Counted from the first letter of the stretch, positions 10,386 through 64,000 are shown. The stretch is DNA of 64,000 nucleotides from a virus (IMGVR_UViG_2700988794_000001:32001-96000), one strand, 5' to 3'. A program made the numbers and translations. Notes: generated by a model not told the origin, from the letters alone.

Positions 10386-11024
10386 ATGCTCATTTCCGCA
10401 ATCACTGGCGACCAGAACTTCCCGAACGGCAGCGCGAAGCTGCATCTCTTTTTCGTCCCGACGCGGCAGCGCATGGGGCAGGAGGTTCATATTGGTCAGC
10501 TTGCCCGAGGCGTCAACCCAGACGTTCCCTGCTCTGCCACCAACATCCGCCGCTTCAATGCGATGAATGGCGCTCCCGAAACCCTTGGGAAGTGGACGCA
10601 GGCCAACTACGATGTCCCAGAGGGTGTCGTGCTCAAGCTCTTCGGCACCCGGCGCACCTCCATCCAGGGGCAGAACATCGGGTCCGCCTCCGCAGTCATC
10701 TATGTCCAGGCGCGCTCGAATGCGGCGCTGACAAGCATCGACTTCAGCCTTATCCCTAACGACCGTTCGCCGATCACGCGGGCAGAGTTGCAGGGTAGGT
10801 TCGACATTCTCACAGGTGCGGAACTCGCACAGCTTGGCGTCTCCATGAACCAACAGACGCTGATGTCCATGAGCGAGCGCAACGTGAGCCGGGTATTCGC
10901 GTTGAGAACCCTTGAACGGCAGCTTCAGGCAAAGCAGACCGTCCGGACCACCACCGTGAATAATTCTGATGGCGAAGCTGTCGTCATTCAGAAGCAGGTA
11001 GCAAGGCGTGCCGTCAAGCTCTGA
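10386..11024 (+). CDS. Hypothetical protein in the AAA+ module
   Basis: 212 aa, GGAGAACCAC RBS, ends RRAVKL. Confidence 0.75.
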   Translation: MLISAITGDQNFPNGSAKLHLFFVPTRQRMGQEVHIGQLARGVNPDVPCSATNIRRFNAMNGAPETLGKWTQANYDVPEGVVLKLFGTRRTSIQGQNIGSASAVIYVQARSNAALTSIDFSLIPNDRSPITRAELQGRFDILTGAELAQLGVSMNQQTLMSMSERNVSRVFALRTLERQLQAKQTVRTTTVNNSDGEAVVIQKQVARRAVKL

Positions 11025-11033
11025 ACATAGGCC

Positions 11034-11062
11034 TTGACAAAGGATTGGGGTTAAGTTAGATT
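11034..11062 (+). promoter_or_regulatory. Conserved promoter
   Basis: TTGACAAAGGATTGGGGTTAAGTTAGATT. Confidence 0.8.
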
Positions 11063-11102
11063 AGTCATAGTGGAATTGACCACGAAGGAAAGGAACCACG
11101 GA

Positions 11103-11546
11103 ATGTCTCATACCACCACACTGAAGGGCGTCCAGATCAAGGACATCGCCGCGCTTCGCGCAGCGGTCGCTGAACTCATCACCCAGGGCGTCAACTGCGC
11201 TCTCCTGGAGAACGCCAAGCCGCGCATGTTCTACGCGAGCCAGCACACCAACTGCGATTACGTCCTGAACCTGAAGGACAGCCAGTACGACGTTGGCTTC
11301 GACAAGCAGAAGGACGGCTCCTACGCTCCGGTGTTTGACGAATGGTCCAACCACGTCTCGGCGAAGATCGGCGCTTCCTGCCCGCTGCCGACCACGGCGG
11401 AAGGCAAAGCCCAGCACCAGATCGGCAAGCTGCTTCAGTCCTACCAGAAGCACGTCGCCATCAACGCCGCCGTCATGTCCGGCTACTCTGTCGAGAGCGC
11501 CGACTACGACAAGGAAGGCAACCTCCAACTCGTGATCAACGCGTAA
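11103..11546 (+). CDS. DUF1257/Ycf35-like protein
   Basis: MSH.T....I.D..AL..A..EL, YDVGF.KQ.DG.Y..V.DEW, LLQ.Y pattern. Confidence 0.75.
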   Translation: MSHTTTLKGVQIKDIAALRAAVAELITQGVNCALLENAKPRMFYASQHTNCDYVLNLKDSQYDVGFDKQKDGSYAPVFDEWSNHVSAKIGASCPLPTTAEGKAQHQIGKLLQSYQKHVAINAAVMSGYSVESADYDKEGNLQLVINA

Positions 11547-11600
11547 GGGCTCCGGCCCTTACCGCCCACCCTCGAAACACAGAAACGGAAAGCAACTCCA

Positions 11601-11819
11601 ATGAGCATGAAGCAGATCAAGGTCACCATCGATCCCATCGGCAACTCCAAGGTCGAAGCAATCGGCTACAACGGCGTCGGCTGCGAAGCCGCCACGAAGA
11701 CGGTCGAAGACGCGTTGGCCGGTGGCAAGGGCGGTGTTGACCGCGTCATGAAGCCGGAATGGTCGAACCCGAACACCGAAGAGCAGACCCAGCAGCAGGG
11801 CATCCCGACCTGGGGCTAA
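11601..11819 (+). CDS. DUF2997-like protein
   Basis: I.VTIDP.G...VEA.GY.G.GC..AT..VE.AL.G....R..KPE. Confidence 0.8.
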   Translation: MSMKQIKVTIDPIGNSKVEAIGYNGVGCEAATKTVEDALAGGKGGVDRVMKPEWSNPNTEEQTQQQGIPTWG

Positions 11820-11827
11820 GACGATCC

Positions 11828-11945
11828 GCGAGGGGCTGGCAACGGCCCCATCGCTTCCAAGGTGAAGCCAGCCTCCTCTCATAGCCGCCGCATCATATGA
11901 GAGTGACACTTAAACCCTTCCTCGTGGGGTTTGGCTGGCTTCTCC
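11828..11945 (+). ncRNA. Structured intergenic RNA (GCAA-tetraloop hairpin + three-way junction)
   Basis: GAAGCCAGCC/GGCTGGCTTC outer stem enclosing CTCTCATA/TATGAGAG and AAACCC/GGGTTT. Confidence 0.45.
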
Positions 11946-11971
11946 CTGCAAGCGAAGAGGAGAACCACCCT

Positions 11972-12340
11972 ATGCAGCAAGTCATCACAATCCAGCCGGA
12001 CGGCACCATGTCCGGCCTCCAGGTCAAGCCCGGCAAGGGCATCGACCTCACCAAGCTCGGAAAGGCCCACGTGGTCCGGGCTTCGGAAATCCTCTGGCAT
12101 GAAGAGAAGCAACTCTGGTATGTCAGCCTCCTGAATGAAGAGCGCCAGATGGACGGCCTCTTCGGAACGCTGACCTGGGATATGTGGACAGATGCCGGTC
12201 TCGACCACGAGCAGCTTCCAGCGGCCACCACCTTCTCGGTAGTCCGTGACAACCTCGCTATGTTCTTCCCGGACTATGACAGGGCAGTAATAGCGGAGAT
12301 TGCATACCTCGACGCCATGCGTCTGAAGGGCATCTTCTAA
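11972..12340 (+). CDS. Small protein of the type accompanying DUF2997/DUF1257 modules
   Basis: I.I.PDG, DL..LG...V.RAS.I.W, F..Y..A..AEI.YL; GGAGAACCACC RBS. Confidence 0.7.
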   Translation: MQQVITIQPDGTMSGLQVKPGKGIDLTKLGKAHVVRASEILWHEEKQLWYVSLLNEERQMDGLFGTLTWDMWTDAGLDHEQLPAATTFSVVRDNLAMFFPDYDRAVIAEIAYLDAMRLKGIF

Positions 12341-15797: not shown

Positions 15798-18624
15798 TGC
15801 CAGCTATGCGACCACGCCATGTGCAGCTTGAAGAAAAACGACCGGTGCAACAAGTTGCAGGCGCTACCCACATGCGTCGGGCGGAGGAAGGCGGTCGCCA
15901 CACCTTCAGCTTCGGACCCTACGACCACCCGGTAACCGATGAGAAGTGCGGCGACATCCTGGTTGTATGCGATGCGCAGAATTGGGATGCTCAGCGTTGG
16001 GGCTACCCGATGCATCCCGATAGCATGAGGATGTTCGCCAAAGCCGCAGAGAAGGCTGGAGTTCCTGACGGCAAGATCACCTTCCTCGGCCTCTGCCCGC
16101 CCGTGCCGACCCAGGACATCAAGTCCGCCGCCCGCACCTGGAAGCACGTCGAGAAGTTCGTGCCCGGCGTCATCGAGTACATCAATCAGCAGAAGCCGAA
16201 GGTCGTCGTCACCCTTGGCGCGCTCGCCAGCCGTGCCGTCTTCGACCGTTCCGTGTCGATCACCAAGGCCCGTGGCGTCCTCGTGCAGCCGCACCCCCAC
16301 CGCCCTCACGTCTTCCCGATGCTGTCGCCCGGCTTCATTGCCCGCGTCCCGGAACACCAGAAGACTTTCGAAGGCGACATTGGCACGCTCTCGAAGTTCG
16401 TACATGCCGGGTTCGATCCGAATGGCATCATGACGATGGAGACCGACTACCAGTGGTGCTACGATCTCCAGTTCATGATCGACAACCCGCCACAGGCCCT
16501 TGCCGTTGACACAGAAGGCACAGGGCTGCGTTGGCACCAGGACAGCACTCGGAACCTCACCGTACAGCTATCCCCTCGCCCAGGCGTCTCCTATATCATC
16601 CCCGTGGACGAAGCCTATGTGATGAAGTGGGCGAAGTTCTTCCCACCTCGGCTTGCCGGTCGCTTGGCCGGTTGCGCGAGCAGTTGAAGCAAATTCTGGA
16701 AAACCCCGACATCCAGAAGATGGGCCACAACATCAAGTTCGACCATATGATGATCCGCAAGATGGGCATCAATATGCAGAACGTCAAACACGATACGCAA
16801 ATGATGGCGTTCGGTGTTGACGAGAACATGATGTCCAAGACCCTGGACGATTGCGTCCGCGTCTGGGTTCCGCAGATGTCCGGCTATGCCGACGACTTCA
16901 ACACGCACGTTGACAAGAACAGGATGTTCGACGTGCCACCCGAAGACATCCTGGACGAAAACGGCAAGGTCATCCAGTACGGCATGCGCCGATACGCAGG
17001 CGGCGATACCGATGCCACCTTCCGGCTTGCCCGCGCCCTCTATCCGTTGCTTCGGCGCGAGCCCAGCCAGTGGAACATCTACGAGCGCATCCATATGCCC
17101 GCCCTGATGGCCTTCGCTAATCGCCTGGAGCGGTATGGCATGGTTATCGACCAGGAAGCGCTACGCAAGCTCTCTGGCGACGTGAAGGCATGGCTGAAGG
17201 ACGAGTTCCGGGCGCTGATCCGTATGGTGCCTCCTGCCGTCCGCCGCAAGCATCTCGAAGCCGGTCTCAAGTTCTCCCGTGACCAGTTCGTCCGTGATAT
17301 CCTCTTCAGCGAAGACGGCTTCAACCTCAAGCCCCAGGTCTTCACCAAGTCCACCGAAGACCTTTCGGATGAGACCAAGCGCGTGCCGTCCGTCTCGACC
17401 AAGGATCACATGCCCTACTTCGTGACCCGCAAGGACACGGCAGGGCAGTTCGTCACCCGTCTGATCGAGTACCAAAAGACCTCGAAGATGGATAGCACGT
17501 ATTGTGGCAACGAAGAGGAAAGGACCGGGTTCTGGCAATACCTGAATAGCAGCAGCCGCATCTTCCCATCCTTCGCGCTGCACAAGACCAACACAGGCCG
17601 CACCGCATCTAGCGATCCGAACGGCCAGAACTATCCGAAGCGTGGTCAGTGGGCCAAACCGTTCCTGAAGGTCTTCAAGCCCAACCCAGGCTACCGCTTC
17701 GTCGCCGCCGACTTGTCGCAGATCGAACTGCGCATCGCTGCCTGGGAAAGCGGCGATGAAACAATGCTTGACATTTATCGCAATGACGGCGATATTCACA
17801 TGATGACAGCGGCAGCAACTATGCGCCTCTCTGTCGAAGAATTCCTACAACAAGAACCTGCCATCCGTAAGTTTAAACGCTTCGCCGCTAAAGCTGTGAA
17901 TTTCGGCTTCGTTTACGGAATGGGTGCAAAAGGCTTCCGGACCTACGCTAAGACGCAGTACGGCGTGGATTACTCCGAGCGTGAAGCCTACGAGACCCGC
18001 GAACTGTTCTTTGCCACCTACCGGCAACTCATCGCATGGCACGAACGTCGCAAGACCGAAGCACGTCGCCAGGGCTTTGTGTCCTCGCTGCACGGCGCTA
18101 TCCGTCACCTGCCGTCGATCTACTCCAGCGACCAGGGCGTGGCGGCTATGGCAGAACGGCAGGCCGTCAACGCGCCTGTCCAGCGCTTCGGCTCCGACCT
18201 CGGCGTCATGGCCCTAACCCGTCTCTCATGGCAGGCAGACCCGGAAATCATGCGCCCGGTCGGCTTCGTCCATGACCAAGTCATCTGTGAGGCCAAGATC
18301 GGCCACGAACTGGAAGCGGCCAACGCCCTGGTATGGGCTATGGAAAACCCGCTGCTCGAAGAGTGGTTTGGCATCACCGCGCCGCTGCCGATCAAGGCCG
18401 AGCCGGATATCGGCGACACCCTCGGCACCACCCTCGAACTGAACGAAATGCCGAAGAACGAAGACGGCTCTCTGAAGGTTCCCGACTGGTGGAGCGAGAC
18501 TGGCATCGAGTGCGTCAACGTCAACGGCACATGGAAGGCCCCGTTCGCCCCGGCCAAGCCCACATGGTGGAACGACAATGAGGCAGAAGCGCAGGAGCAG
18601 TTCACCCGCTTCCTCCACGTTTAA
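15797..18624 (+). CDS. Family A DNA polymerase with N-terminal UDG-like domain and 3'-5' exonuclease; frameshift near 16668
   Basis: KPKVVVTLGA.A, AVDTEGTGL, GHNIKFD, YAGGDTD, TGRTAS.DPNGQN, ADLSQIELR, AKAVNFGFVYG, FVHDQ. Confidence 0.93.
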
Positions 18625-18734: not shown

Positions 18735-19148
18735 ATGCCCCGTACAGCCCGCGCCGTCAACCTCAGCACCGAACTGACGGCTGACGAAAAAGAACAACAG
18801 ATGAAGGCCAAGCTGGCGAAAATCCGCCAGTACGCCAAGGCCGAGAGCAAGGCCCGCTCCGACAAGGACAAGCTCTTGCGTCAGCTTGAAAAAGAGATGA
18901 CGGCGGCTGGAAAGCGCAAGCTCGAAGTCTTTTACGACAACGAGACCATCATCGGCGAGATCGGCACTGGCGACCCGCGCAACGTCGTGGACACTGCCCT
19001 GCTCGCTTCCAAGATCACACATGCTCAGTTCGTGTCCATCGCCACCGTCGCTGGCGGCGCGGTCAAGGAAGCCTTCGGCACCGGCATCCTCAATCAGGTG
19101 CTTGTCGAAAAGGAAGGCGAGCGCAAGCTTCGCGTCGAGGTCGCGTAA
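18735..19148 (+). CDS. Hypothetical protein
   Basis: 137 aa with GAGGAG RBS. Confidence 0.7.
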   Translation: MPRTARAVNLSTELTADEKEQQMKAKLAKIRQYAKAESKARSDKDKLLRQLEKEMTAAGKRKLEVFYDNETIIGEIGTGDPRNVVDTALLASKITHAQFVSIATVAGGAVKEAFGTGILNQVLVEKEGERKLRVEVA

Positions 19149-19154
19149 TCCATC

Positions 19155-19658
19155 ATGTCGAAGGTTGTCACTCATTCGCGGTTTCAGCTTAGTGATATCA
19201 ACGCTGAAACCCTGAAGGGTATGGGGGTGGAAGTCCTAGCGGATTTCCCCTCCGACGCCGACCTGGGGCTTACCACCCCGGCCTACGGCGAGGAAGTGCT
19301 CGGCACCCTCTCTGTCGAAGAGTTCTCCATCTTTGTCGAGATGAACCATCTTAGCAAGGAAATCGAGCGCATCACCAAGTCTATCGCTGCCCGCAAAATG
19401 CGGGAAGTGGCAGATCGCATGGAAGGCGATGACGACCTTATGTCAGCCGCAGTCATGGGTGTTGAGAGCGCAGGGAAGAATTTCTTCGACAACGAAGAGG
19501 AGGAAGACCACTTCCATACCCTGAACGCCAAGTTCGCCCTTCTCCGGTCTACCCTCTATTGGGTTCTTGGGGAACGGTATCACGTCCACTCCTGGCGTTG
19601 CGGCATCCGTGCCAACCGCCGGTTCGTCAAAGTCGAGAAGCGCCTACCGAATGGATGA
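19155..19658 (+). CDS. Hypothetical protein
   Basis: 167 aa ORF in operon. Confidence 0.7.
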   Translation: MSKVVTHSRFQLSDINAETLKGMGVEVLADFPSDADLGLTTPAYGEEVLGTLSVEEFSIFVEMNHLSKEIERITKSIAARKMREVADRMEGDDDLMSAAVMGVESAGKNFFDNEEEEDHFHTLNAKFALLRSTLYWVLGERYHVHSWRCGIRANRRFVKVEKRLPNG

Positions 19659-21004: not shown

Positions 21005-21067
21005 GACAGTGGCTCGGAAGAGACCCTATGGCGGCGTCTGATGTACGCCTTTTGGAGAAGAGAAAAG

Positions 21068-22116
21068 ATGACTGACACACCTGAAGTCCGCACGCGTTCT
21101 CGCACAGCGGCACCATCCACGGAAAGCAATCAGGGCGAAGCAACGGGCGGCATGCGCCGTACCCGCGTTGCCATGGCTACCGGCTCGGCAGGATCGACCG
21201 GCGGCGAAGACACTTCGTGGATGCATACTGGCGACGAAGGCGCGGCCCAGGCCGACAAGGTTCGTCAGGAGCGTGCATCGCAGGACGCGGAAGCTGCCAA
21301 GCGCCCGTCAAGCCCATGCGCTTCAAGCTGGCGTGGAACTTCCAGGATAGCGGCTTCGGCGAAACTGCCGACGTGGTCATCCTCGACGCGAAGCCCGGCC
21401 CGCGCTTCTGGGAGCATACCGCTCGCAACCCGCGTACCGGCTACTGGACGGAATTCGAGCAGTGCCCCCATGAATGGGACAATTGCCCGCTTTGCCCTCC
21501 GGATGGCGAGAAGTCTCCCTACTATGTCATGATGCTTACCGTCATCGACATGCGCGAATTCACTGACCGCGAAGGCAAGGTATGGGCAGCGACCCGTAAA
21601 CTGCTTCCGGTCAAGATCGAGCAGCAGGGCTTCTTCGACGGGCTCTATAAGCAGCATGGATCGCTTCGCGGCATCCGTCTGATCATGACCCGCGATGGTG
21701 GCAAGATGTCGTCGCCGATTGGCAACAACATCCAGTTCGACTGCATCCACACTGAAGAGGAAATGACCGAATACTGCACGTCCTCCGGCCTCTGGGAAGA
21801 GTACAAGCAGGACAACGGTCGCGTCATCTGGGGTGAAGGCGAATTCATCCAGGCCTACAATTACGGCAAGATTTTCGAACGCCCTTCCGGTGCCAAGCTG
21901 CGCCTGAAGTACAACCCCAGCGGCCAGGGCGACACCATCGGTGGTCGCGACCAGCAGCAGGGCGAAGGCTGGCGTTCGGGAACCAATCCGGGCCGGGCAA
22001 CCGGCATGGCACAGCGTAGCTCGCAGCGCCGCGTCAATCTTGACGACACCAAGGGAACCGGCGGCTCGGCTGGCGGACCCAACAGTAACGAAATGGATGA
22101 CAACATTCCGTTTTGA
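21068..22116 (+). CDS. Single-stranded DNA-binding protein (gp32-like); frameshift near 21305
   Basis: FWEH...CPHEWDNCPLC, LTVIDMR, acidic tail DDNIPF. Confidence 0.75.
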
Positions 22117-24106: not shown

Positions 24107-24499
24107 ATGTCCACGGGAGATTTGACGGTGCGCACTCGTAACAGGGTGCCACCGCCGGAACCACAAGCCGCCCCTCGGAGGGCTGTCAACCTCCACGTCG
24201 AACCGGAATTGGTCATCCACGAAGGTTCGGTCCAGGTCAGTCGCGTCATGTACGGCGTCGAGACCGAGAGCGTCAACGAGAAGGTCGCCGTGCCGATCTT
24301 TCACACCGCTCCGGCTCGCGTCCGCATCAGCGGCGGCATCACCAAGAACCTCGGCGACTATAATAGCGCCCGGTTTGATGTCTCGATGGAGCTTCCCTGC
24401 TATCCGGAAGACAGCGAGATCGACAGAACGAAGAGCTACATATCGGCCAAGGTCGAGCAGTATCTTCTGGAAGAAATGGAACAAGCCGGAGTGCCATAA
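24107..24499 (+). CDS. Conserved phage protein
   Basis: GITKNLGDYNSARFDVS motif; GGAG RBS. Confidence 0.7.
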   Translation: MSTGDLTVRTRNRVPPPEPQAAPRRAVNLHVEPELVIHEGSVQVSRVMYGVETESVNEKVAVPIFHTAPARVRISGGITKNLGDYNSARFDVSMELPCYPEDSEIDRTKSYISAKVEQYLLEEMEQAGVP

Positions 24500-24500: not shown

Positions 24501-25681
24501 ATGACTGAAGTCCGTTCCCGTAGCCGTCCCGCTGCCGCACCTGCCGCCGTGCAACCTGTTGCACCGACCATCGCCACACCCGCCTACAATCGTGGCGAGT
24601 TGGCTGGCGTCCTGAAGGCCGTCAACAAGAGCCATGGCGAGGGCATCATCTCCCGTGGCAACGTCAAGCCCGTGATCGAGCATATCCCCACCGGCATCTT
24701 TGCGCTCGACATGGCGACCTTCGGCGGCATCCCGCAGGGCCTTGTGACGCTGCTCTACGGCTGGGAAAGCTCCGGCAAGACGACACTCTCCATGAAGGCC
24801 ATCGCGGGCGCTCAGAAGAAGTACCCGTCGAAGGCTGTCACGGTTATCGACATCGAAGGCACCTTCGATATGAATTGGGCTCGCAACGGCCACGGCGTCG
24901 ATACCGACAGTCTGGTCTACGTCAGCCCGTCCTCTGGCGAGCAGGCGCTGGATATCGCCGATGGCATCTTGCGTGCCGAGGAGACCTCGCTGATCCTGGT
25001 GGATAGCTTGGCCGCGCTCATCCCCACCAAGGAACTGGAGAAGAGCTTCGAAGACGGCGTCGTCGGCGAGCAGGCGCGTCTGATCGGTCGCTTCGTCCGC
25101 AAGGTGCAGCAAGCCGTCCTGGAAGAACGTCGCCGTGGGCACGCTCCTGCCATCATCCTGGTCAACCAGTGGCGCTACAAGGTCGGCGTCATGCACGGCG
25201 ATCCTCGCACCCTTCCGGGCGGCATGGCGCAGCACTACGTGGCCGGTCTCAAGATCGATATCAAGAACAAGGAAAAAGCCGGTCGCGATGATCGTAACAT
25301 CGAAGTGATCGACTACAACGAGCACTCGTTCACCATCGCCAAAAACAAGATGGGCAACGGCATCCGCACGGGTGAGTTCGAGATGATCCGCAACCCGTCG
25401 CATTGGCTCGGGCCGGGCTTCATTGACGACGCCAAGACCGTTGTCTCCTACGCCATCAAGATGGGCCTTGTCGGCGGCTCCGGGGTCGCTACACCTTTGA
25501 CGGCCTCCCCAATGAGACCTTCCGCAAGTACGATGACATCGCCGAATACATGTACCAAGACCTGGACTTCTTCGACGCCACCAAGCATCGCCTGATCTCG
25601 CTTCAGCGCATTGCTTCCGGCCTCGAAGGCACGGGCTGGTACGTACCGGAAAGCCAGCAACTCTTGCAGGCCGCAGAATGA
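24501..25681 (+). CDS. recA: RecA recombinase; frameshift in G-run near 25485
   Basis: IPTG..ALD.A..GGIP.G, YGWESSGKTT, IDIEG, LVDSLAAL, VNQWR, PGG, KNK. Confidence 0.92.
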
Positions 25682-29901: not shown

Positions 29902-30019
29902 GCCCTTCCTCACGGTGAAACTTGTTGCACTCGAATTTTGTTGCCTACATATGTTGACCTGTATATAGTGGTACGCTGGGAACGGCACCCACCACATACA
30001 GACATCATTGGAGCAATGG

Positions 30020-34024: not shown

Positions 34025-34596
34025 ATGACAAATAATCCCCTATCCGCTCGCAAGTTTGGTCATTGGCATTGGGAGAAGCCCGACTTCGATGACCTGAAAA
34101 TCCAACGGCTGGTCGAAGAGCACGTGCTCTTGGGCGCTCGCAATGGCCTAAGTGGTCATGGCCTATCCCCGGCCCCTACAACGGCCACACAGGGCTTGAG
34201 AGGGTCGAGGGATGGAAGCGGGTATGGTTGGCTGTCCGCATGGGCCTGTTGCCTTCTCCGGCGCAGTGCTCCATCTGCTTCACCCGCACCGGCAGCTTCC
34301 AGTACCACAACGAAGACTACTCGCGCCCGCTCCAGGCTAAGCCGGTCTGCCAGTCCTGTCACAAGATCGTCCATATCCGTTTCAAGAACCCTGACAGTTG
34401 GTTGCAACTTGTTGCACGGCATCGCGTCGAGGGTTATCGGCAGTGGTTCGAAGACGCCCGGATGGCAGAGCGTAACACGGTCGATGGCAGGCACTTGCTC
34501 CAGATCACCACGAGGGTTGCCACCAAAGGCATGATGGCTCGCTCGCCTCGCACGGTTCGCCTGGAAGTAAGGCAAAGAACCCGCAAGACCGACTAG
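34025..34596 (+). CDS. HNH-like Zn-binding protein; frameshift near 34148
   Basis: YNG....R...W, CSIC, HNEDYSRP, VCQSCH..VH. Confidence 0.6.
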
Positions 34597-38681: not shown

Positions 38682-39926
38682 ATGCTTAATCCTTTTCGCC
38701 GGGCAGTGGACCTCTCTGATGTTCCCTCGCCCGGCAACTTCCTGACACGAGCCTTCAGCCGTCTCTTCGGCAAGGGCCGCAAGCAGGCGCACCAAGCCGA
38801 GCTTACCAGGGCTATCAATGGTGGGCTCGCCCGACAAGCCGAGCTTTCCAGGGCGCTCGCTTCCGGCGGTCCTGCCAACCATGTGCCCGCTGGCACACCT
38901 ATACCAGTTGTGACCGTGCAGGTAAGCGGCGACGTGCAGGCCGCTGACACAATGGGGCGCGTAGCCTCAGCCATTAGGGATCAGTTCGCCATCAACAACG
39001 CTGCCGTCGCCCGGCGACGAAGCAGAGATGCCGTCGCTAGGGCTATCCACATTGATACGACCGTAAAGGAGCAACCCATGCCAGAGAAGCAGGAGACGAA
39101 GCGTAAGGTTTGGCTGGGTGAGGATAGACCATCCGTCATTGCCCAGCGTGAGGCCAAGGAGAGGGCAGAGCGGCTCGCCAAGGAGGCAGCAGAGCGCCGG
39201 GCACGCATCGAAGCGGAGGAGGCTCAGCGGAAGGCTATGGCCCTCGTGGAAGCCGAGCGTGCGCTGGCAGAGCGACGGGCACAGTTGGAGGCGAGCCGTC
39301 AGCAGGGCTATGCACCTGCCAATACGTCGGTGAGTGCCGAGGCATCCGTCCTCCGGATCGATGAGCTTCTGACCGTCAAGGCTAACCGTGTCCTGCCCGT
39401 GCACTACCGCGAAACAATCGAGGGCTACTACGATGCCTTGAGAGGCGACAACGTCTATCAGACCACGGGCGTGCTGTCGCCACCTCCGGCCAACTACAGC
39501 TACTATCTCTTGACAAAGGACACCGTAGGGCTACCCGTCTCCGCTGATCGCCCGGCTCGCTTTTCTGCATCGATCATCATGCCGGAAGTCAACAAGGGCG
39601 GTCAGGTCAACATCCAGTCCAGGTCCATGTACGTCCACCATGCCTTCGTCATGCCTATCGAGTTGACGCTCGCCTTGCGTGGAAAGCTACCCAAGGAAAT
39701 GGCTGACCGCTTGGGCGCTGTCGTCGTCATGGAAGACGAAGGCCGTGGCGATCTCCGGCAGTACCGCGTGGACCACGAGATATTGAACGATGTCTTGAGC
39801 GGTGGCGGTCTCTACGATTGGGGCAAGTCGATCAATCGGGACTTCAAGATGTTTGGCGCTCGCGCCGCCTTCGGCTCAGCGGAGACCGCGTTTCGTGGCG
39901 CGTCCACCAGCATTGTGTACCGATAA
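38682..39926 (+). CDS. Hypothetical protein with coiled-coil (possible internal start 39078)
   Basis: 414 aa ORF; second RBS AAGGAG before MPEKQ. Confidence 0.7.
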   Translation: MLNPFRRAVDLSDVPSPGNFLTRAFSRLFGKGRKQAHQAELTRAINGGLARQAELSRALASGGPANHVPAGTPIPVVTVQVSGDVQAADTMGRVASAIRDQFAINNAAVARRRSRDAVARAIHIDTTVKEQPMPEKQETKRKVWLGEDRPSVIAQREAKERAERLAKEAAERRARIEAEEAQRKAMALVEAERALAERRAQLEASRQQGYAPANTSVSAEASVLRIDELLTVKANRVLPVHYRETIEGYYDALRGDNVYQTTGVLSPPPANYSYYLLTKDTVGLPVSADRPARFSASIIMPEVNKGGQVNIQSRSMYVHHAFVMPIELTLALRGKLPKEMADRLGAVVVMEDEGRGDLRQYRVDHEILNDVLSGGGLYDWGKSINRDFKMFGARAAFGSAETAFRGASTSIVYR

Positions 39927-45381: not shown

Positions 45382-47729
45382 ATGAACACCACCTTCGCCC
45401 TGATCGCCTTCCTCGCCCTCAACCCTGCCGAACCGCAGGAGATGGACGCCTTCAAGATCGACTACGCCATGAGCGAGCAGGATTGCTACGAGGCAGTCAA
45501 GCACGTGCAGCGCTTCGAGATCGCTCCCGGCGTCACTGCCGTCATCCAGCCCGAGAACCTCTCATGCGAGGAGGAGTACAAGTGAGCGAGATAATCCTGA
45601 AGGTGAGCATCACCCTGTCCGATGAGCCTAGCCCGGACGAGCGTCGGGATGTCGAGCATTACATCGCCATGGCGCTGAAGAGCGTAGAGGGCATGCGTCC
45701 TACCCGGCGCGCGCCCCTCACCATCAATCGCGCTTTCATCGTGGAGGAAGAGAAGTGAGCATCGCCGCCATCATCGCAGCCGCTGCCGCATCCACGCAGA
45801 TGCAGATCATGCATCAGGAGCAGTTGCACCAAGCCGCCGCCTTCCTGTTGCGCCCGCAGCCCACGCGCTTGTCAGTGAGCAACGTCGATACCAGGAAGGC
45901 CGATCCTTCTATCCCGGCCCCTACGGAGTGGAAGCCATGAACACCGCCCTCCTCAAACTGGCAAGCGTTCGACGCCAAGGGTATCGCCGCTGGGACGTGC
46001 CCGGCAAGGCTGACAGATACGTCGCCTTCAAGTACACCACGCTCTACGCCAGCGGCAAGGCACGTGAGCGCTGGCTGGTCTGGCATATCCATCCGCACCA
46101 TAGTGGCAGTGGCGGCATCCATGTTGACTACTCGCAAAGGCACTATGCCGAGGCGCTGGATAAGGCGCTGACATGGGTAGGCCGTGCGTTCGATCCTGCC
46201 CGCGCAGTAGGAAGGAAGAAGCCATGACCCTGAAACTGTCCAAGCATATTCTCGATAGCGAGAAGAAAACCGAGGTCGCTATCAACGAGCTTGCTACGTG
46301 GCTCTACGAGAACAGTGCGGCCTTCGATGAGCCGGGCACGGTAAGCACGCAGTCTGCAAGGGCGCTGGCGGAACGCATGATAGAGGAGGCAAGCCGTGAG
46401 AAGCATCCGTCTCGATGACGCCCGGCGCACAGAGAGCCCTACCGAAAAGGTGATGATGTTCACCTGCCCGGAGCGCGACTTCATTGAGGGCATGGAGAGT
46501 GCCTGGAAGCTCGGCTACCTCGCAGGCGGCGGCAAGGATACGTTCGTGGATGTAGCATGGGGCATGTCAGAGATGCGTGCGCTCCTGATCGCCAGAGGAT
46601 ACGAAGCGTGAAACATGTTGCACGGCGAAACGTCCGCCTCGACGGGGAGCGCCAGCGGCCAGCCCCTGTACGCTACTACCAGTGCTCCGGCTGCAACCGG
46701 CGCTGCGATGATCCAGTATATGACTTGGATATGATCCGGGAAGCAGGGTGTATATCGTGCTGCCCTGAACGCAAGATGAAGCTATACGTCGATCACAAAC
46801 TGGTGAAGAAGTAGCCATGAGAAAAGTACGCCTGGAAGAACCGAAGCCGCCGTCCGAGACCACCATCGTCACGCTGTCTGTCCCGGCAGGCATCGACGTG
46901 GCCGATCTGGTCCGGCGCTACAACGAGCAGTGCGAAGCCAATGGCCTGCCGCCGATCCTCGACGCCAAGCTGGTGGATATCGAGAAGGCCAGATGGCCTG
47001 CCGCCTACCATGAGTACCGCGAGCGCCTGGAATACCTCAACCGTGGCAAGAAGCCCTCCACGCCCTTGACCATGGAGGTGTTCGGCACCAAGCTACAGCA
47101 GATTATGGAGCGCACCGGATGGCCTGCCAGTTCTGCCACCGGCCTGATCCTCATACAGGAGCACCCAGACATTGCCTAAGAGACATGTTCGCCTGGACGA
47201 TCAGCGCCAGAAGCCCAAAGTCAAAGAGACCAAGCTGAAGATCACGCCCCTATCCGACCTCACCCGAGAGGAGCTTGTCGAGCGTTGGGCTGGCATCAAT
47301 CGTATGAGCGTGGACATCGAGAGCATCGACTATGCATCGCTCATCCGACCCTCGGGCGCTGCCATCACTCCGGCCAGGGTACGCAACAGCATGATAGTCA
47401 ACACTGACGAGGGCGCTGTCTTTCGCTTGGAACTAGACGGCAACCCTATAGAGCTAACGCGAGATGTCATAGGCGGAAACCGCAGATCGGCACAGATCGG
47501 CAGGGACTACGGCATAGGCGGGTACGACACCGCCGAAAGCGGCTTCCTGCAAAGGGCACAGGAGATGACTACGCCGCGTCCTCCTGAAGCTCAGCGCGCC
47601 CGGCCTCCCTTTCCCGGCTGGTCAAACTGGTATCTCTCCCACACCGACGAAGACGGCAACCGCCATGAGGTCAGGGTGCATAACACCTCGGGCAACACAG
47701 AGCGCCGCGTGATCAGACGCATCCCTTGA
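45382..47729 (+). other. Operon of nine small genes (starts 45382, 45582, 45755, 45937, 46224, 46396, 46608, 46817, 47172)
   Basis: Overlapping starts and stops; last four begin with an R-x-[VI]-R-L-[DE] motif. Confidence 0.65.
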
Positions 47730-47815: not shown

Positions 47816-48978
47816 ATGGCAGACGAAAGCTACATTGTCCTCTACCGCCTTGGCGGATGGGCCACTTGCGAGTGGAGACGCACCGCCAACATCATTGGCA
47901 CCCTGGAGCGCGCCGAGGCTGAAGTCGCCTCGTTGGAGCGCATGGGCTTCAAGGCCATTTACCGCACCCAGGCGGAGCACGACTTGATCGGCTTCCCGCT
48001 CGGCTGGCACTGGAAGGTCGTAGACCACGCCATGGACACCATCAACATCACCCCGTGGGAGAGCCAGCACAGCATCCACCCGTCGCGCTTCGAAGAAGTC
48101 CGTGCCCTGGTCGAGAGGGAGCGCCTGAAGTGAGAAGCTTCCAGGAGAGCAAAGACGCCATGCTGCACCACCTCGACGGCGCAGGCGAGCTTGGCTGGAT
48201 ATTCTCGCGGCTCTCCGCCTATGAGAAGGAAGTGGCGCATGCGCTCATCTCCGAGGGGCTGGCAGTGATCGCCAACAGTCGTCTTGTGCTGACAGAGGAA
48301 GGAAAGGAGCACCTGAAGTGAAGCCAGCCGTAGGTCAACAGGTCAGAGGGCGCTTGCCCTTCATCACGGGCATCAAAACCTGTGTCATCGTCGCCCGGCG
48401 CGTACCCAAGGAAGGCGAGTACGCCATGAGCAGGGACGGTTCGTTCTTCCGGCGGCAGGGCAGCAAGTTCCTCTCTAAGGTGGACGCCGCCCGCGAATAC
48501 TGGATCATAGAGGAAGTGAAATGACCCGAGAGCAACTCGAAGCCATGCGCAAGAGCGTCGAGACCAGCTTCCACTTCCATACGCGAGCCAAGGACAAGGC
48601 CGAGTATGATCGGAAGATGAACCGCAACGACAGTAGCCCGGAACGCGACATGCACCAGACGGTGGCCTGTGTCTGCAACGTGTTGCACAAGGCGCTTGTC
48701 GCCGCCATCAACGTCACGGCTGACGACAAATGAAGCGGCATGTCCGCCTAGACGACAACAAGCCCCGCCAGGGCAAGCGTAGGCCCCAGAGCGACTATGA
48801 GGCCTACCTGGGGCGGATATGCGGCTGCATGCACCCGAACGCACACCCGCCCTGCTCCGGCTGCACGAGCGCCATTGACGAAGAGCAGTTCGAAAAGGAA
48901 ATGGCCGAGGAACTGGCAGACTGCCTGTCCACCTATAGGGCCATAAGTCATATCATCGAGAGGCACCATGACTACTAA
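47816..48978 (+). other. Small hypothetical genes (starts 47816, 48130, 48318, 48521, 48730)
   Basis: Coupled GTGA/ATGA junctions. Confidence 0.6.
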
Positions 48979-49381: not shown

Positions 49382-49645
49382 CGAAATCGTAGCCAAGCAC
49401 GTCGCCCGGCAGCTAAGGCGCATCGCCTCCAACTGGTGTGACCACAACCACTTGTCCGGCCCTGAAGCCATACACCAATGCGCCAATGACCTGGACCCAC
49501 CGAAGGAGTGGTTTGATCCTGTAGCAGCCACGCTGCTTGGGTTCGTCAACGAAAGCCGTGTCAGTCGCGGCCTCCCTCCGCATCAGCGTCCAGGTGCGCC
49601 AGATGCACCTGACCTACCGAAAAGCAGGAAGGTCGATCTTAGCCC

Positions 49646-49687
49646 TTGACAAAGGATCGGTTCCAAGTTACTTTGCAACATGTTTCA
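49646..49687 (+). promoter_or_regulatory. Conserved promoter with a variant palindrome downstream
   Basis: TTGACAAAGGATCGGTTCCAAGT; TGCAACATGTTTCA at 49674. Confidence 0.75.
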
Positions 49688-53431: not shown

Positions 53432-54966
53432 ATGCTCATGAAACTCGTTGTCGAGAGCACTAAAAAGGTAGACTACGGCACCCAAAAGGCCGAGATCACC
53501 TTCAAGGGCAGTTCGCCAGAAGGCGTGGCGCGCGCCGTCGAGCGCTACTTGCGCGACCTCGGCATGAACGGCCCGTCCTACTCCTACACCCTTGAGCAAC
53601 TGGTGGATAAGCGGTGAGCAGGCATACGTGGCAAGAACTGGTGGCTCCGCACGTCCGGCGCTTCACCGTAGCGGCCAAGTTCGGCGGCTCGGCGTCCTGG
53701 AATGCAGAGGGCTCCGCTGCCATGGCAGAACTGCTCTCCACCATGGCCAAGATCATTGACGAAGAAGTGCTCGCCCGGTCGCATGAGGGCGTTGCCCAGG
53801 CCGAAGCCCGCGCTCTCGGCAATAAGGCCGCACAGAAGCTCGTAGAGGCCCTAGAGAGGGATATGCGGCGCATGCACGGCATCATACCGCCGGAATACAA
53901 GCTCGTCGCCAAGCTCTACAAGGCGCACAGGAGGGGCAAGTGAACAGACGCGTCCGGCTGGCAGACAGAGCGCCGAAGTCCTTCAAAGAGAGGATGATCC
54001 AGGCCGCAAAGGAAGGCGAGGAGCTTCGCCGGGCAAAGGTCGTCAAGAAGTTATGGCGGCTCTCCCAGAGGGACCGGTCGGAGTACGACACTTATGACCG
54101 CGCCGTCGTGGTTGCCGTCAACGAAGACATGGCCAGACGGATACATCCGAACAATCCGGCAGCAGCGGATTATGATTGGAGCAAAGACGACACATGGGCT
54201 CGCTCTCCAGAGCACGTGACCGTCAAGTACCTCGGCATATGTGAAGACGACAGTTATGATCTGGGAGATGTCGTCTGTGAGAGTTTTAACGCAGGCTGAA
54301 AGGAGCCAAAATGAGTACGCATATCATGCATTACGTTGTCTGGGGCGTGAAGCTTCCCGACTTCGACCACGATGAGCAGGAGGAGCTTATCGACAAGTAC
54401 AAGTCCGACCGGTATTCCCGCAAGAAGACCAAGCAGGACAACGCGGTCGATGATATCTCGCTGGTCTGCTCCGGCATGGACGACTTCGAGTATTTCGCCG
54501 GGCACGTCGCCCGCATGGCCGATGGCTACGATGGCGAGGGCATCGACTACATCAGCCTGCCCGCGATCCCCGAGAAGGCAGACGAGTGGATGCAGGCCAC
54601 ATTCCGGCTCTGTGAAAAGCTCGGCCTGCCAAAGCCCGCCGGATACGATTTCGGCTGGCACGTTTTCACGCAGTGGACTTAACCGGCGAGGAGCCAACCA
54701 TGAAAGAGTACCTGTTCTACATCGCGGAAGAAGATGAAACCAAAGGCACGCCCGTGCTGATCGTCTCCCGCGAATATTGGGAAGCGGAACACGCCATCGA
54801 AAGCGTGCACCTCTTTGACGACCTCCAGGATCGTCTTCCCGAGTGCATCAGCGATGAGCTTGCCGAAAGCATGTTCGTCTCTGACAAGGGCCGCGATGAC
54901 ACCAAGGCCGACATGGAAGCCGCTGGTTTCATCTGGGAACCGGCACTGGCCAACGCGGGTCAATAA
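53432..54966 (+). other. Operon of small hypothetical genes (starts 53432, 53614, 53940, 54311, 54700)
   Basis: RBS-preceded tandem ORFs. Confidence 0.65.
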
Positions 54967-59726: not shown

Positions 59727-60280
59727 CACGCAAGCTTTTCCTCGATCTCGACGGCGTCATGGCCGACTTCGACACGCACTTCTATCAGTGCTTCGATTGC
59801 CATCCTCCCTCCAAGGGTGGCGTCAGCGACGACGAACTGTGGCGGCTCGTGCACGGCCACGGCTCATTCTTCCGGACCATGCCCATGTACGACGGGGCCA
59901 AGTCCTTCTTCGATATGCTGGTCGCCTACGGGCTTAACCCGATCATCCTGACGGCGGCATCGAAGAAGCACTACCACGACATGGCCCGGCAGAAGCGTGC
60001 ATGGGTACGCGGGAACCTCACCACCGAACACCTGATCCTTCCTGTCCAGGGCGGCAGCGCCAAGCCTCTCTTCATGCATGCGCCCGGCGACGTGCTCATT
60101 GATGATTGGTGGCGGAATTGCGAGCGCTGGATGGAAGAAGGCGGCACGGCAATCCACCATACCGACTTCGCCACCACCTCGCTCCGGATCGGCATGATTT
60201 GGGGCATGGACAGCAGGCGCGAGAGCCAGGGCCTGCCCTTCCAGCCGGTCTACACCGAGGAGGATTTCCTCAATGTCTGA
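59723..60280 (+). CDS. 5'(3')-deoxyribonucleotidase, HAD family
   Basis: FLDLDGVMADF, ILTA, QKRAWV, K, LIDDW..N...W...GG..I.H. Confidence 0.85.
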   Translation: MTRKLFLDLDGVMADFDTHFYQCFDCHPPSKGGVSDDELWRLVHGHGSFFRTMPMYDGAKSFFDMLVAYGLNPIILTAASKKHYHDMARQKRAWVRGNLTTEHLILPVQGGSAKPLFMHAPGDVLIDDWWRNCERWMEEGGTAIHHTDFATTSLRIGMIWGMDSRRESQGLPFQPVYTEEDFLNV

Positions 60281-62136
60281 TGCACTCGTGAGCAAATGGT
60301 GGATGGCGCGCTCGCTGTCCACCGCAGAGCGTGCGACCTTGACGCCCGAGCAGAAAGCCGAGCGCCGGGCGCAGGCAGTCCACTGGCGTCTCGAAGATGC
60401 CGAGAAGAAGCTGACAGTCAGCCGCCGCAAGCGCATGACACGCTGGCTGAACCAGTGGTTCCGTGGCGAAGTCATGCGCGAACTACTCTATAACGAGGAA
60501 ACCGGCGGCTTCTACAGCCTGAAGGCCTTCATCCGCAGCGAATTCATCGACGCCGTCCGGGTGGCACTGCGCGGCACCGATCAGGCGTCCATGCTGGAGA
60601 GGATCATCCGTGGCGAGGTCGGCAAGGTTCTCAGAGGCAACGCCTACGGCACCGACGCCGATGGGCAAGCGAAAATGGAAGAATACATCCAGAAGCTTGT
60701 CAAGGAAGAAGTCAAAAAGCAGGTGATGAGCAGCCTTAGCATCGACATCGCCGTAACGGGCCGCGTCTTCTCGCCTCCGGCAGGGCAGCGGCGCGTTGAT
60801 CTGGGAGCACCTGAATAATGGCAATGAAGCATATCAGCGACAAGCAGGTGTGCGAGGCCTACCTCGCCGCCCGGCTCGACAGCGAGCGTTTTCCTTACGA
60901 CTACCTCATGGAGGTGACCGGCCAGCCGTTCAAGGTCTGCTACCGCTGCATGGAACGCGCCTGTGATCGCGGCATGATCGAGTACGGCGTCTCGCTGCGC
61001 ACCGGCTGGCTAACCGAGTACGGCTTCCGGGTGGCGGAGATCGAGCCCTTCAAATGGTGCGAGGGGAAGGAATTCGTGCCGATCCCTTACAAGCCGCCCA
61101 ACTTCAACCCCGCCCTGGAGCGGATGGCGATGGACCTCCTCAACGGTATTGTTGACGACATTGAGGAAATCCTCGTCAAAGGACACAACGGAGAGAAACG
61201 TGACTGAAATTCCCTACCCGCACGCCAGCACGGAACCGCTGGAGACCATCAGGTCCAACGAATGCGAAAGCCAGCACGGCTCGCTCTGCACCCGGCGCTT
61301 CCAAGCGTTCTGGAACGAGATCGTCCGGCTCCGCGATAAGGTATCCGAACTGGAAGGCGCAAATCCTGCCAAGGAAGCGTTGCAACTGTTGCAGCCCGCA
61401 ACGCCAGAGCAGCGCGCCAACATCGCGCCGCCCGAGAAGCCGAACGTCGTGGCCAGCTACTATCACGAGTTCGTCATGACGCCGGACACCATCGACATCG
61501 AAGACCAGGGCATGGCGATGATCGTGCACGCCGACGCCGATACGCCGGACAGCGATCCGAACACCATGGCCGTCCGGTTCCACTCCTGGGATGAAACCAA
61601 GGAGCATGAGCATCTCCGCTCGTTCGCTGGCAAGTTCGTCACCATCACCGTCGAGGCGTTCAATGTCTAATAGCGTCCTTGCGCCGTGGATCGGCGAGCT
61701 TGGCCTTCAGCAACAGTCCGTTCTCATCCTCGCCTTGCGCGGGCCGGACGGCGACAAGAAGCATACGCCCTTCAAGCACCTCCTCCGGCCTTACCGAGGC
61801 ACGATCCTGAAGGCGGCGAAGTTCAACCGCATGCTCCTCATTGACGAGGAGGCCGACAGCTTCATGACCATGGAGAACTTCGGCGACCCGGTGCGTTGGA
61901 ACTACGTGGTCAAGGACTTCCTGGAAAACGAGGCAGACGGCTCGGTCCTGCACCACTATACCCACTTCATGCACGCCGCGCAGATCATCGGCTACAAGCA
62001 TCCCGAGGTGGACTACCGCGACCGCTGGCAATGGCTCTACATCCAGTTTTGCAACAGGTTGCACGTCAACGTGGAGACCGAAGAGCAGATGGATCGCCGC
62101 CTCTGCGACTGGAACAAAGTGTTCTGGACCTCTTGA
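60273..62136 (+). other. Hypothetical genes (60273..60818, 60818..61207, 61200..61670, 61663..62136)
   Basis: Coupled ORFs. Confidence 0.65.
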
Positions 62137-62161
62137 CAAAGGATCGGTTCTAAGTTAAATT
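62133..62161 (+). promoter_or_regulatory. Conserved promoter
   Basis: TTGACAAAGGATCGGTTCTAAGTTAAATT. Confidence 0.8.
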
Positions 62162-62184
62162 CTTAGTGTCTGAAAGGGGATAAC

Positions 62185-64000
62185 ATGACTGAAGAGACCA
62201 AAAACCGCTGGGAAGGTATCGTCAAGATACAGTTGCCGCTCGCTGGCAGTGTTTCCGATGCGCTGATCTACGACAAGACCAAGCACGTTCACGTGTTTCT
62301 GCCGGTCGGCGACGTGGAAGAGATCGCGAAGGGCCGTGTCAAGTTCTTCACGAAGGCGCGCATCGACAGCGATGGCTTCCTTCATATCGAAGAAGATGCG
62401 GAGGAGCAAACGTGGTGAGGGATGTCCGTCTCGATGACACGAGACCAAACGACCGTCTAGGGACGGACAAATCTCCGATCCCGGAGGGCGGTTTGCCGAA
62501 AGGCGAAGCCTCGCACTCGGTTCGCGGTTACTTCGTAAAGGAAGTTGGCAAAGCCGTGATCTTCGACGTGCGTGACATGCAGGTGGGGAACCATAAGAAC
62601 ATTATGCTCCCCACCTCGCAGGTTCATATCAAGCAACTCGGCGGCATGTCGGTAGACATCTATATGCGCGGGTGGCTTTACAAGGAGAAGTTCCGATGAC
62701 CGAAGAGAAAGAGAAGACGGGCTATCTCGCCTTCCACAGGGCAAGGCCTTCCCGCTCTCGGCAGCGACCACCAAGGACGCCTATGATCAGGCGGCAAAGC
62801 ACTTCGGCGTGCCCAAGCGCACTGCCCACAGGCATATCCACCTCGAAGAAGCGCCGGTCGGCCAGGGGAGTAACCCCTAATGTGGTATAAGCTGGGAGAT
62901 GACCACATTCCCGTCGAGACCACGATGGAAGAGGCAAACGCGGACGGCTTCGGCACCACTAAGGGCGTCGTGCGGCAGGACGTTCACCTGAGAGGCGCGC
63001 TCTCCACAGTCTTCCTTTATCTCGACCACCGTTTCGGCGACGGCCCTCCGATGCTTTTCGAGACCATGTGGTTCCCATACGATGACAACGACGGGTCCGA
63101 AGTGCTGGATCGCTACCCGACGTGGGACGAAGCTCTTGCCGGGCACATGCGCCACGCTGAAGAGCTTGGCATCGCCGCCGAGATGCAGCAGCGCGATCTG
63201 AAGGCAGAGGATGCCAAGGCCGCAGAGAAGAGGAGGCGCAGACATGTCAATCTCGATGACTAGCCCACGTCGCGTCCGCCTCGGCAAGGACTTGGAACCG
63301 GCCAAGCGCTTCGTCCGCCCGGACAAGATCGCCGTCGCCATCACCATTGAGGCGCTGGATAAGAGCAGAACGTCGGGCGGGTGGTGCCATCCGAACAGGC
63401 CAGAGAACATGGAGCCTGTGTGGGAGAAGCTTTCCGAGCTTTGCGACTACTACCACGAGAAGGAAGTGCCCTTCAACGTCTGGTATCAGGTGGAATTGCA
63501 CAGCATGGGCGTGGTTGTCACTACCGGAAGCTGGCAGCAGTACCCAAGGGTTCTTGAGCAGGCCCAACTGCTCCTCGAAGAGTGCCTGAAGGCCAAAGGG
63601 CGCATCGACGCCGAAGACTATAATAAAGAAAGGGTGGAATATCGTGGCGGCTAAGAAATTACGACCATCGACACCGGGCCATAAGCAAAAGGGCTACTAT
63701 GGCGCTGATCCGGTCAAGGAAGGCCAGGAGACGCCGATCATCGCCGTCAAGAAGGGCATGCAGAGGGCGATCAAGACGCCTTGCGTAGAGTGCCCTTCCG
63801 GCGAGACAGCGCGTCCGGCTACCTCGGAGGCTATACGCCCGAGATGTACTTGGATGCCGTCCATTCCCCGGCCTCGCTCGCTTGCCACCGGTCGCCCGGC
63901 TTCCACGAAGGTGACATCGAGAAGCAGCGCGTCTGCACCGGCCTCGCTGCCTTCCGCGCCAACATCGGTCACATTGCCTCCACCGACGCCATGGTTGAGC
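62185..64000 (+). other. Small hypothetical genes (starts 62185, 62412, 62696, 62880, 63256) and a truncated Cys-rich gene from ~63644
   Basis: Coupled ORFs; last has PCVECP...GYLGG...LACH...CTG. Confidence 0.6.

Follow-up and report, generated by a model that had tools for sequence, protein, structure and literature searches.

Why should so many unrelated proteins of a single phage begin or end with the same short peptide? The question is raised by a 64,000-nucleotide stretch of viral DNA (IMGVR_UViG_2700988794_000001:32001-96000, here called the window), which corresponds to bases 32001-96000 of the 109,558-bp contig of a Rhizobium phage and has ~59% G+C and genes that lie nearly all on the + strand. 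The peptide, which we call tag A, consists of R-x-[VI]-x-L followed by Asp, Glu or Gly or by the C-terminus itself, and it occupies 5–7 residues at the start or end of a protein. Its carriers, ~25 mutually unrelated proteins, make up roughly one-seventh (~15%) of the phage proteome and include the polymerase, the SSB, the portal, an AAA+ ATPase and many small proteins, the latter presumably early proteins. A preliminary description of this DNA had listed ~19 proteins with a terminal R-x-[VI]-x-L-[DEG], and all 19 of these instances were found again in place. Our data demonstrate that tag A is a short linear peptide under purifying selection on protein ends.

The nearest public record is Rhizobium phage RHph_I4 (MN988552, 108,441 bp), whose DNA is ~83% identical across the helicase-polymerase region and whose GenBank annotation (168 coding sequences) served as an independent gene annotation for the tests. 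We counted R.[VI].L, a dot standing for any residue, in the 123 proteins called in the window, in the 190 of the whole genome and in the 168 of RHph_I4, and compared the counts with 300 shuffles preserving local composition; the RHph_I4 proteins were also shuffled over their whole length. Within the window the first 20 residues contain 10 copies of the motif, compared to 1.36 on average after shuffling (0/300 shuffles reach this), the N-terminal window counts being approximate because window gene starts were called in this analysis, guided by RHph_I4 orthologs. The motif occurs four times in the last 20 residues against 1.07 (5/300 shuffles reach this) and eight times in protein interiors against 7.58. 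When [DEG] or the terminus is required after the Leu, the window counts are 6 against 0.28 for the first and 4 against 0.35 for the last 20 residues (0/300 each). For the whole genome the values for R.[VI].L are 14 against 2.10 and 8 against 1.85 (0/300 each), with interiors at 23 against 15.0 (12/300), and for RHph_I4 they are 15 against ~2.2 and 9 against ~1.9 (0/300 each, with whole-protein or local shuffles), with interiors at 22 against ~16 expected, which is not significant. Overall, the terminal counts amount to 4–7 times expectation. Control motifs in RHph_I4 that were reversed, permuted, shifted in spacing or altered by Lys for Arg or Ala for Val were not enriched at N-termini, and none matched the terminal excess of the motif itself; the gapped control R..[VI].L did reach 6 in the last 20 residues where ~1.8 were expected (2–3 of 300 shuffles). 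When all three-letter gapped words in the same phage were scanned without bias, R.V.L was the word found in most proteins (21, with 3.9 expected) and took second place in the ranking. Terminal enrichment over a shuffled proteome, by which the preliminary description had proposed to judge the motif, is therefore present in the window, in the whole genome and in RHph_I4, while interiors have no clear excess, and the terminal tag observation is real and robust.

Comparison with RHph_I4 revealed what is conserved. The proposal that the motif be sought in orthologs was borne out, as 21 of the 22 alignable instances are kept between the two genomes, and tag A is retained even in orthologs that are only 24–26% identical overall. 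The core codons (n=63) have undergone 31 synonymous and 4 non-synonymous changes, compared to 53 and 80, respectively, in the flanking codons. Of the Arg codons in 25 instances, 14 belong to the CGN and 11 to the AGR family, the information content of third positions is low, and the choice of Val and Leu codons equals that of the genome (p = 0.66 and 0.15). The earlier statement that the codons differ and that conservation lies at the protein level is thus upheld by an Arg drawn from both codon families, by uninformative third positions and by the dominance of synonymous changes in the core. The Shine-Dalgarno sequence of the downstream gene falls outside tag A where this was checked. BLASTP among the 25 carriers with the motif masked gave 0 non-self pairs at E < 0.1, so that the carriers are, as had been claimed, unrelated at this level, and Pfam provided no family common to them. 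On these grounds we rejected both a DNA-level element or promoter at gene boundaries, given variable third positions, a genome-like choice of Val and Leu codons and the use of either Arg codon family, and a paralog family. What could still be said for an artefact, whether from chance, from paralogy or from an element in the DNA or RNA at the borders of genes, is that the motif is short and degenerate and that the Arg codons of the N-terminal copies are skewed to AGA/AGG. This excess, however, fits the usual bias of codons right after a start, and with genome-wide terminal counts that no shuffle attains, a core in which synonymous changes dominate and no detectable paralogy, we regard an artefact as next to impossible.

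The 25 residues flanking tag A are poorer in hydrophobic residues (0.22–0.27 versus 0.29–0.32; p = 0.0006, 0.03 and 0.008), and in AlphaFold2 models of two carriers, the AAA+ ATPase and its 212-residue neighbour, both tails have pLDDT < 60. As far as these models can be taken, tag A is predicted to sit on flexible tails that model as disordered. The pattern has the properties of a short linear motif, namely degenerate recurrence in non-homologous proteins above chance, a flexible location and a peptide that is kept while its flanks drift.

In the N-terminal instances, the Arg is residue 2–9 with the exception of one protein, in which it is residue 25, and most of the tagged starts are preceded by a GGAG-like Shine-Dalgarno sequence. 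All window instances described here lie on the + strand. The UDG-PolA polymerase (start 15797) carries RHVQLE as residues 7–12 (15815..15832), and its RHph_I4 ortholog has RNVQLDD. RAVNL forms residues 6–10 (18750..18764) of a 137-residue protein (18735-19148); it is kept in RHph_I4, and the counterpart in the relative G001, a complete IMG/VR genome (93,409 bp, 49% G+C, rated 100% complete) whose portal is ~48–50% identical to that of the window genome, reads RRGTNLD. The same peptide forms residues 25–29 (24179..24193) of protein 24107-24499, the exception noted above. RAVDL is found at residues 7–11 (38700..38714) of a 414-residue protein (38682-39926), within which RKVWLG (39102..39119) lies 9 residues past an internal ATG (39078) with AAGGAG upstream; the latter copy is absent from RHph_I4. 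A run of small genes follows with RSIRLD at residues 2–7 (46399..46416) of protein 46396-46611, whose GTG start is preceded by AGGAGG, RNVRLD at residues 7–12 (46626..46643) of protein 46608-46814, RKVRLE at residues 2–7 (46820..46837) of protein 46817-47179, whose ortholog is 24% identical overall and keeps RHVRLGD, and RHVRLD both at residues 4–9 (47181..47198) of protein 47172-47729 and at residues 3–8 (48736..48753) of protein 48730-48978. Further downstream are RRVRLA, with Asp following, at residues 3–8 (53946..53963) of protein 53940-54299, RDVRLD at residues 3–8 (62418..62435) of protein 62412-62699 and RRVRLG at residues 9–14 (63268..63285) of protein 63244-63654. Apart from the copy in protein 48730-48978, which was read from the sequence, and those for which other evidence is given, these assignments were supported by ortholog comparison.

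In the C-terminal instances, the Leu lies 0–24 residues from the stop. RAVKL ends flush with the C-terminus of the 212-residue β-rich protein that adjoins the AAA+ gene (11007..11024), as seen in the homolog alignment and the model. RRVNLD stands in the C-terminal tail of the SSB (22027..22044), 24 residues before its end, by ortholog comparison. RTVRLE, 10 residues from a C-terminus (34549..34566), is the sole alignable instance that is not shared with RHph_I4, where the residues are TSMRLE. RKVDL (49626..49640) lies 2 residues from the stop of ORF 49374-49649, which was not accepted by the gene caller. Ortholog comparison supports RRVDLG (60789..60806), 4 residues from the C-terminus of protein 60273-60818, and RHVNLDD (63240..63263), which ends protein 62880-63263. 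It also supports an instance beyond the earlier list, RHIHLE (62830..62847; RHIHLEE with the following residue), 11 residues from the C-terminus of ORF 62672-62880, and a second addition within the window is the variant RAGMSLDS that ends the AAA+ ATPase (10147..10173), the close relatives of which end, for example, in GRAMSLDG or PRAVNLDG. Outside the window, the same genome has RAVRLDD at the portal N-terminus, further N-termini with M-RYVRLDDD and V-RKIKLD, and C-termini that end in RKINLD, RKVSLD, RNVKL and RLIDLSD.

In the window genome, frameshifts split many genes that have an intact RHph_I4 counterpart (window 15797-18624, 29938-32433, 21041-22116 and at least seven others), among them those for the polymerase, ribonucleotide reductase, SSB, tape measure, endolysin, a ParB-like protein and a tail protein. 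In the polymerase and reductase genes, every frame-breaking difference from RHph_I4 amounts to the loss of one nucleotide from a short run of G or C, and the splits look like assembly or sequencing error and not biology. The polymerase itself consists of an N-terminal uracil-DNA-glycosylase-superfamily domain (Pfam UDG, E = 4.5e-06, window 15872-16684) fused to 3'-5' exonuclease and family-A polymerase domains.

How far the tag extends was examined in G001, in Rhodobacter phage RcMenchie (141 annotated proteins), in the IMG/VR relatives G002, G003 (198 kb) and G004, and in the first 50 kb of RHph_TM16. In the last 20 residues of G001 proteins, R.[VI].L occurs 10 times against 1.37 expected (0/300 shuffles), and the N-termini have no excess. 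The chains of at least 10 small proteins finish flush with [KR]-R-A-[VI]-x-L, and 8 of 124 proteins end in [RK]x[VIFT]x[LI]. No similarity was detected between these small proteins and the tagged small proteins of the window. Because small proteins are tagged N-terminally in the window and RHph_I4 and flush C-terminally in G001, tag A is portable between termini, and it seems that a free carboxylate can stand in for the acidic residue, Asp or Glu, by which the Leu is followed elsewhere. The portal is tagged near its N-terminus in all three tag-rich genomes, that is, the window genome, RHph_I4 and G001. Proteome-wide enrichment was not found in RcMenchie, G002, G003 or G004, and inspection by eye of the 66 proteins encoded in the first 50 kb of RHph_TM16, likewise a Rhizobium phage, revealed neither tag A nor the second motif described below. 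The only such tails found in G003, by the C-terminal screen and on the AAA+ protein itself, are those of the AAA+ protein (GRRIDA), a DUF3150 protein (GRVIDIE) and a SLOG/YpsA-like protein (GRIIDIED), all within 6 kb. In that genome, the SLOG/YpsA-DprA-like and DUF3150 proteins (locus L013, 5647-6861 and 12833-13885), encoded beside the AAA+ and DUF1257 genes, share the AAA+ ending G-R-x-I-D-[IA]. We take tag A to be an old feature of the AAA+ gene group that has expanded across the proteome in the lineage of the window genome.

The AAA+ ATPase (8500..10173, +) is the first member of a conserved gene group (window 8500-12340) that also comprises the 212-residue β-rich protein (gene 10386-11024), a DUF1257 protein (11103..11546, +), a DUF2997 protein (11601..11819, +) and a 122-residue protein (phrog_38408); the DUF1257 and DUF2997 proteins, assigned by Pfam, are conserved and untagged, and the former is a candidate receptor. 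Pfam, AlphaFold2 and Foldseek describe the ATPase as a tandem (D1-D2) Cdc48/p97-like enzyme without an N domain, and hence as a candidate reader of the tag or a fellow client. Its model, built with 103 homologs, has a pLDDT of 89.9 and consists of two AAA-type rings' worth of fold followed by a disordered tail from about residue 534. Foldseek matched Cdc48, p97, NVL, Drg1 and Rix7 over both domains (E ~1e-22 to 1e-20, TM ~0.6–0.67), and the top NCBIfam models were CDC48, PAN and FtsH, every one below its family cut-off. Walker A, Walker B and an LVGxSE stretch, which by analogy with p97 we take to be the pore loop, are invariant or nearly so among the homologs, so that the genome encodes a classic-clade AAA+ protein, an unfoldase by its fold, with intact ATPase and pore-loop-like motifs. 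The enzyme resembles p97/Cdc48, which works with peptide-motif cofactors through N-domain motifs and through PUB or PUL domains that bind its extreme C-terminal tail, over both rings and in having a disordered C-terminal tail with a conserved terminal motif, but differs in lacking the N domain; Pfam found no PUB, PUL or UBX domain in the 123 phage proteins scanned, and no ubiquitin-like conjugation genes were recognised.

More than 1000 AAA+ homologs were found, many of them on 90–110-kb contigs that presumably represent related phages; in a search of viral contigs a single-protein query matched none, and an alignment query gave 31 loci, 5 of them full-length. The tail is present in 118 of 120 close homologs. 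Its last 16 residues contain a relaxed tag A in 70 and a strict one in 32 of the 118, compared to 3.5 and 0.1 in shuffled tails, with the Leu most often two residues from the end (LDG before the stop), and a basic motif (R-x-R-x-R or [VIP]-R-x-R) occurs in 101 of the 118. Basic tails are also common in the wider AAA+ family. The neighbouring 212-residue protein ends in RRAVKL or a near variant in 12 of 12 aligned homologs (25–79% identical), nine with RAVKL and two with RAVRL; R208 is invariant, and RRAVKL is the best-conserved stretch of the last 30 residues. Its model is β-rich with residues 200–212 at pLDDT < 50, and the RcMenchie counterpart ends in RKITI. No clear fold match was obtained for it, with 0 Foldseek matches in the PDB at E <= 0.001 and a best VIA-align Z of 4.6 over 48,161 chains; PHROGs, NCBIfam and PADLOC gave no function for the small proteins of the gene group, and a protein atlas search returned DUF1257 clusters alone. 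Phages of Rhodobacter, Pseudomonas (SM1) and Mycobacterium (Corndog) also encode homologs of the AAA+ protein, with basic or tag-like tails such as KVRVLDL at the end of the Corndog protein, and the AAA+/DUF1257/DUF2997 group is widespread in phages of Rhizobium, Rhodobacter, Pseudomonas and Mycobacterium, with relatives in cyanobacteria. PMC4284462 lists a cyanobacterial DUF2997-DUF1257-ferredoxin gene cluster, and according to PMC8601537 the RcF cluster has its closest relative by capsid in RHph_I4.

Tag A is accompanied by a second terminal motif, motif B, which reads [VI]-R-[TS]-R-x-R-[PGV]. Genome-wide it occurs 4 times in the first 20 residues, twice in the last 20 and 5 times in interiors against <=0.1 expected, and it often stands 8–15 residues ahead of tag A. 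Its sites are the N-termini of the RecA-like protein, the SSB (in RHph_I4) and protein 24107-24499, the AAA+ tail and the portal C-terminus. In particular, VRTRNR forms residues 8–13 of protein 24107-24499 (24128..24145, +), 11 residues before its tag A; VRSRSR forms residues 4–9 of the RecA-like recombinase (24510..24527, +), identified by Pfam; and VRARSR lies in the disordered AAA+ C-terminal tail (10099..10116, +), where R537 and R539 are nearly invariant among homologs. RHph_I4 protein 18757-19446 has three copies near its C-terminus. Both motifs are present on the SSB, the portal, the AAA+ protein, protein 24107-24499 and a protein at G000 8587-9192; the SSB (window 21217-22116) combines an N-terminal motif B, seen in the intact RHph_I4 ortholog, with its C-terminal tag A and a bacterial-SSB-like acidic tip that ends in DDNIPF. 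In other lineages the same orthologs (SSB and RecA N-termini, AAA+ C-terminus, portal and terminase) bear different basic terminal motifs: x-V-[KR]-P-[KR]-P in RcMenchie, L-V-F-K-(P)-K in TM16 and M-A-F-[KV]-[KR]-[KR] in G001 and RcMenchie, the last of which is reminiscent of LAST, the basic cooperativity motif at the N-terminus of T4 gp32.

The preliminary description had proposed a docking or sorting signal that recruits many proteins to one hub. The general part of this proposal, a protein-level signal, agrees with the terminal enrichment, purifying selection, portability and disordered tails; among the suggested hubs, the phage AAA+ protein has circumstantial support, and capsid loading and a host protease received none from our computations. 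The best explanation as a whole, which we consider quite possible though still short of probable, is a selected terminal tag that docks as a strand on one phage-encoded reader, either the AAA+ unfoldase or a small partner. Arg, Val and Leu alternate, so that in an extended strand their side chains would all point to the same face. That a carboxylate is needed right after the Leu, from Asp, Glu or the chain end, suggests strand-type docking in a groove with a basic clamp. Class II PDZ ligands are comparable, with their hydrophobic-x-hydrophobic-COOH end, as are internal ligands with a carboxylate-mimicking Asp after the last hydrophobic residue; Pfam gave no PDZ or TPR match at E <= 0.001 in 111 + 12 phage proteins, many of which are without any family. 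A single phage-encoded reader would recognise all carriers, most likely the Cdc48/p97-like tandem AAA+ unfoldase or its small, conserved and untagged partner DUF1257 or DUF2997, and the unfoldase would receive the tagged proteins for remodelling or timed removal. A long array of small ORFs encodes many of the small tagged proteins, which would fit a removal of early proteins. The tails of the AAA+ protein and of its 212-residue neighbour may bind at the docking site of the tagged proteins, serving either as tethers or as a self-inhibiting pseudo-substrate.

The circumstantial case for the AAA+ protein as hub consists of its Cdc48-like fold, its own tag, the tag of its neighbour and the tagged tails encoded beside the AAA+ gene in G003. 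Short terminal tags read by AAA+ unfoldases, such as ssrA, the ClpX N- and C-motif classes and the MuA tail, are likewise short peptides at either terminus of unrelated proteins, on flexible ends and with an importance of the C-terminal carboxylate. Tag A differs from them in sequence, in that the candidate reader is itself tagged and in that its carriers include essential replication and structural proteins. Several observations weigh against the favoured explanation. The AAA+ protein bears the tag itself, which would equally fit a fellow client. The polymerase, SSB and portal, being essential, are odd as unfoldase targets. In the AlphaFold2 monomer models, within which between-subunit binding cannot appear, neither the AAA+ tail nor that of the neighbour docks on its own body. 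Co-occurrence across genomes is mixed: all three tag-rich genomes encode the AAA+ protein, and RcMenchie, G002, G003 and G004 possess it (32–45% identical) without proteome-wide enrichment, though G003 keeps three tagged tails in the AAA+ neighbourhood; the ATPase is therefore not sufficient for the expansion of the tag. Finally, among 119 representatives of the wider AAA+ family (50% clustering) the strict tag occurs once, and the relaxed one occurs 16 times where shuffled tails give 4.2 on average and 14 at most, a weak enrichment. A more ambitious version, which we find doubtful, is a "tag-and-unfold" code in which a Cdc48-like phage unfoldase would, without ubiquitin, read a hard-wired terminal peptide on ~15% of the proteome, set the time at which early proteins are removed or remodelled and also service the complexes of replication and packaging, the portable tag having spread to dozens of new genes in one lineage.

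The same carriers could instead dock on a different phage-encoded platform, such as DNA coated with SSB or a replication and packaging factory, with the AAA+ protein as one recruited client. The presence of the SSB, polymerase, AAA+ protein, portal and proteins flanking the RecA-like gene among the carriers is in line with this, as are the frequent company of motif B, the likeness of the SSB N-terminal motif B to the basic cooperativity motif of T4 gp32 and a model in which the ATPase carries the tag rather than visibly reading it. No candidate platform was found, however, many carriers are tiny proteins without a link to DNA, and the tagged tails found in G003 all cluster around the AAA+ gene; we consider such a platform somewhat unlikely, if worth taking seriously. 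The reader could also be a conserved host protein, either a ClpX/ClpA/Lon-type unfoldase-protease or another hub, and tag A a degron or host-docking signal. Host AAA+ proteases do read short tags at either terminus, including the ssrA tag, the ClpX N- and C-motif classes and the basic MuA C-terminal tail, and the tag core is alike in phages of 49% and 59% G+C that presumably have different hosts. The lack of the tag in the examined part of RHph_TM16 is a hint to the contrary, its occurrence on the phage AAA+ protein and neighbours across lineages likewise counts against this reading, and a host reader appears unlikely.

Two further functions are suggested by known peptides. The T4 capsid-targeting sequence and encapsulin cargo-loading peptides are, like tag A, single short terminal peptides common to unrelated proteins of a virus or virus-derived shell, the motif ends in hydrophobic-x-acidic, the portal is N-terminally tagged in every tag-rich genome and the phage has a prohead protease. 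A signal for capsid targeting or for that protease is nevertheless very unlikely, as tag A uses both termini, its carriers are largely non-structural, with polymerase, SSB and AAA+ protein improbable as cargo, its flush C-terminal copies leave nothing to cleave, and the tag is missing from the major capsid protein and from the putative scaffold (annotated as RNase E/G-like and encoded between the prohead protease and capsid genes). The RVxF motif of PP1 shares the basic-x-[VI]-x-hydrophobic spacing ([RK] in first place), the location in disordered regions and the basic flank before and acidic flank after, and the genome encodes a Metallophos enzyme of the PPP family (ApaH/lambda-phosphatase-like) on which the carriers might dock. 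Yet the Phe or Trp that RVxF requires is replaced by Leu (rarely Ile) in every instance of tag A, and among solved structures the phosphatase finds its best relatives in ApaH proteins. G001, complete and with strong C-terminal enrichment, has no tblastn match to the phosphatase at E <= 1e-4. A phosphatase hub is accordingly disfavoured, and we hold it to be extremely unlikely.

Full-text literature searches, supplements not covered, returned no description of tag A, and the word 'motif' does not occur in the available text of PMC8601537, its supplements likewise not covered. Terminal peptide tags are a known kind of signal, and the reading of tag A as a docking tag is, in general, well supported. 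As a shared address, the tag groups some 25 phage proteins, with the polymerase, SSB, portal and unfoldase among them, into one testable interaction network. Small phage proteins of unknown function are abundant, and a 6-residue peptide provides a handle for finding their hub. If the reader is the Cdc48-like ATPase, tag A would represent a bacterial-virus counterpart of tag-directed unfolding in which the tag is encoded in the genes themselves, and it would provide a first function for the widespread AAA+/DUF1257/DUF2997 gene group.

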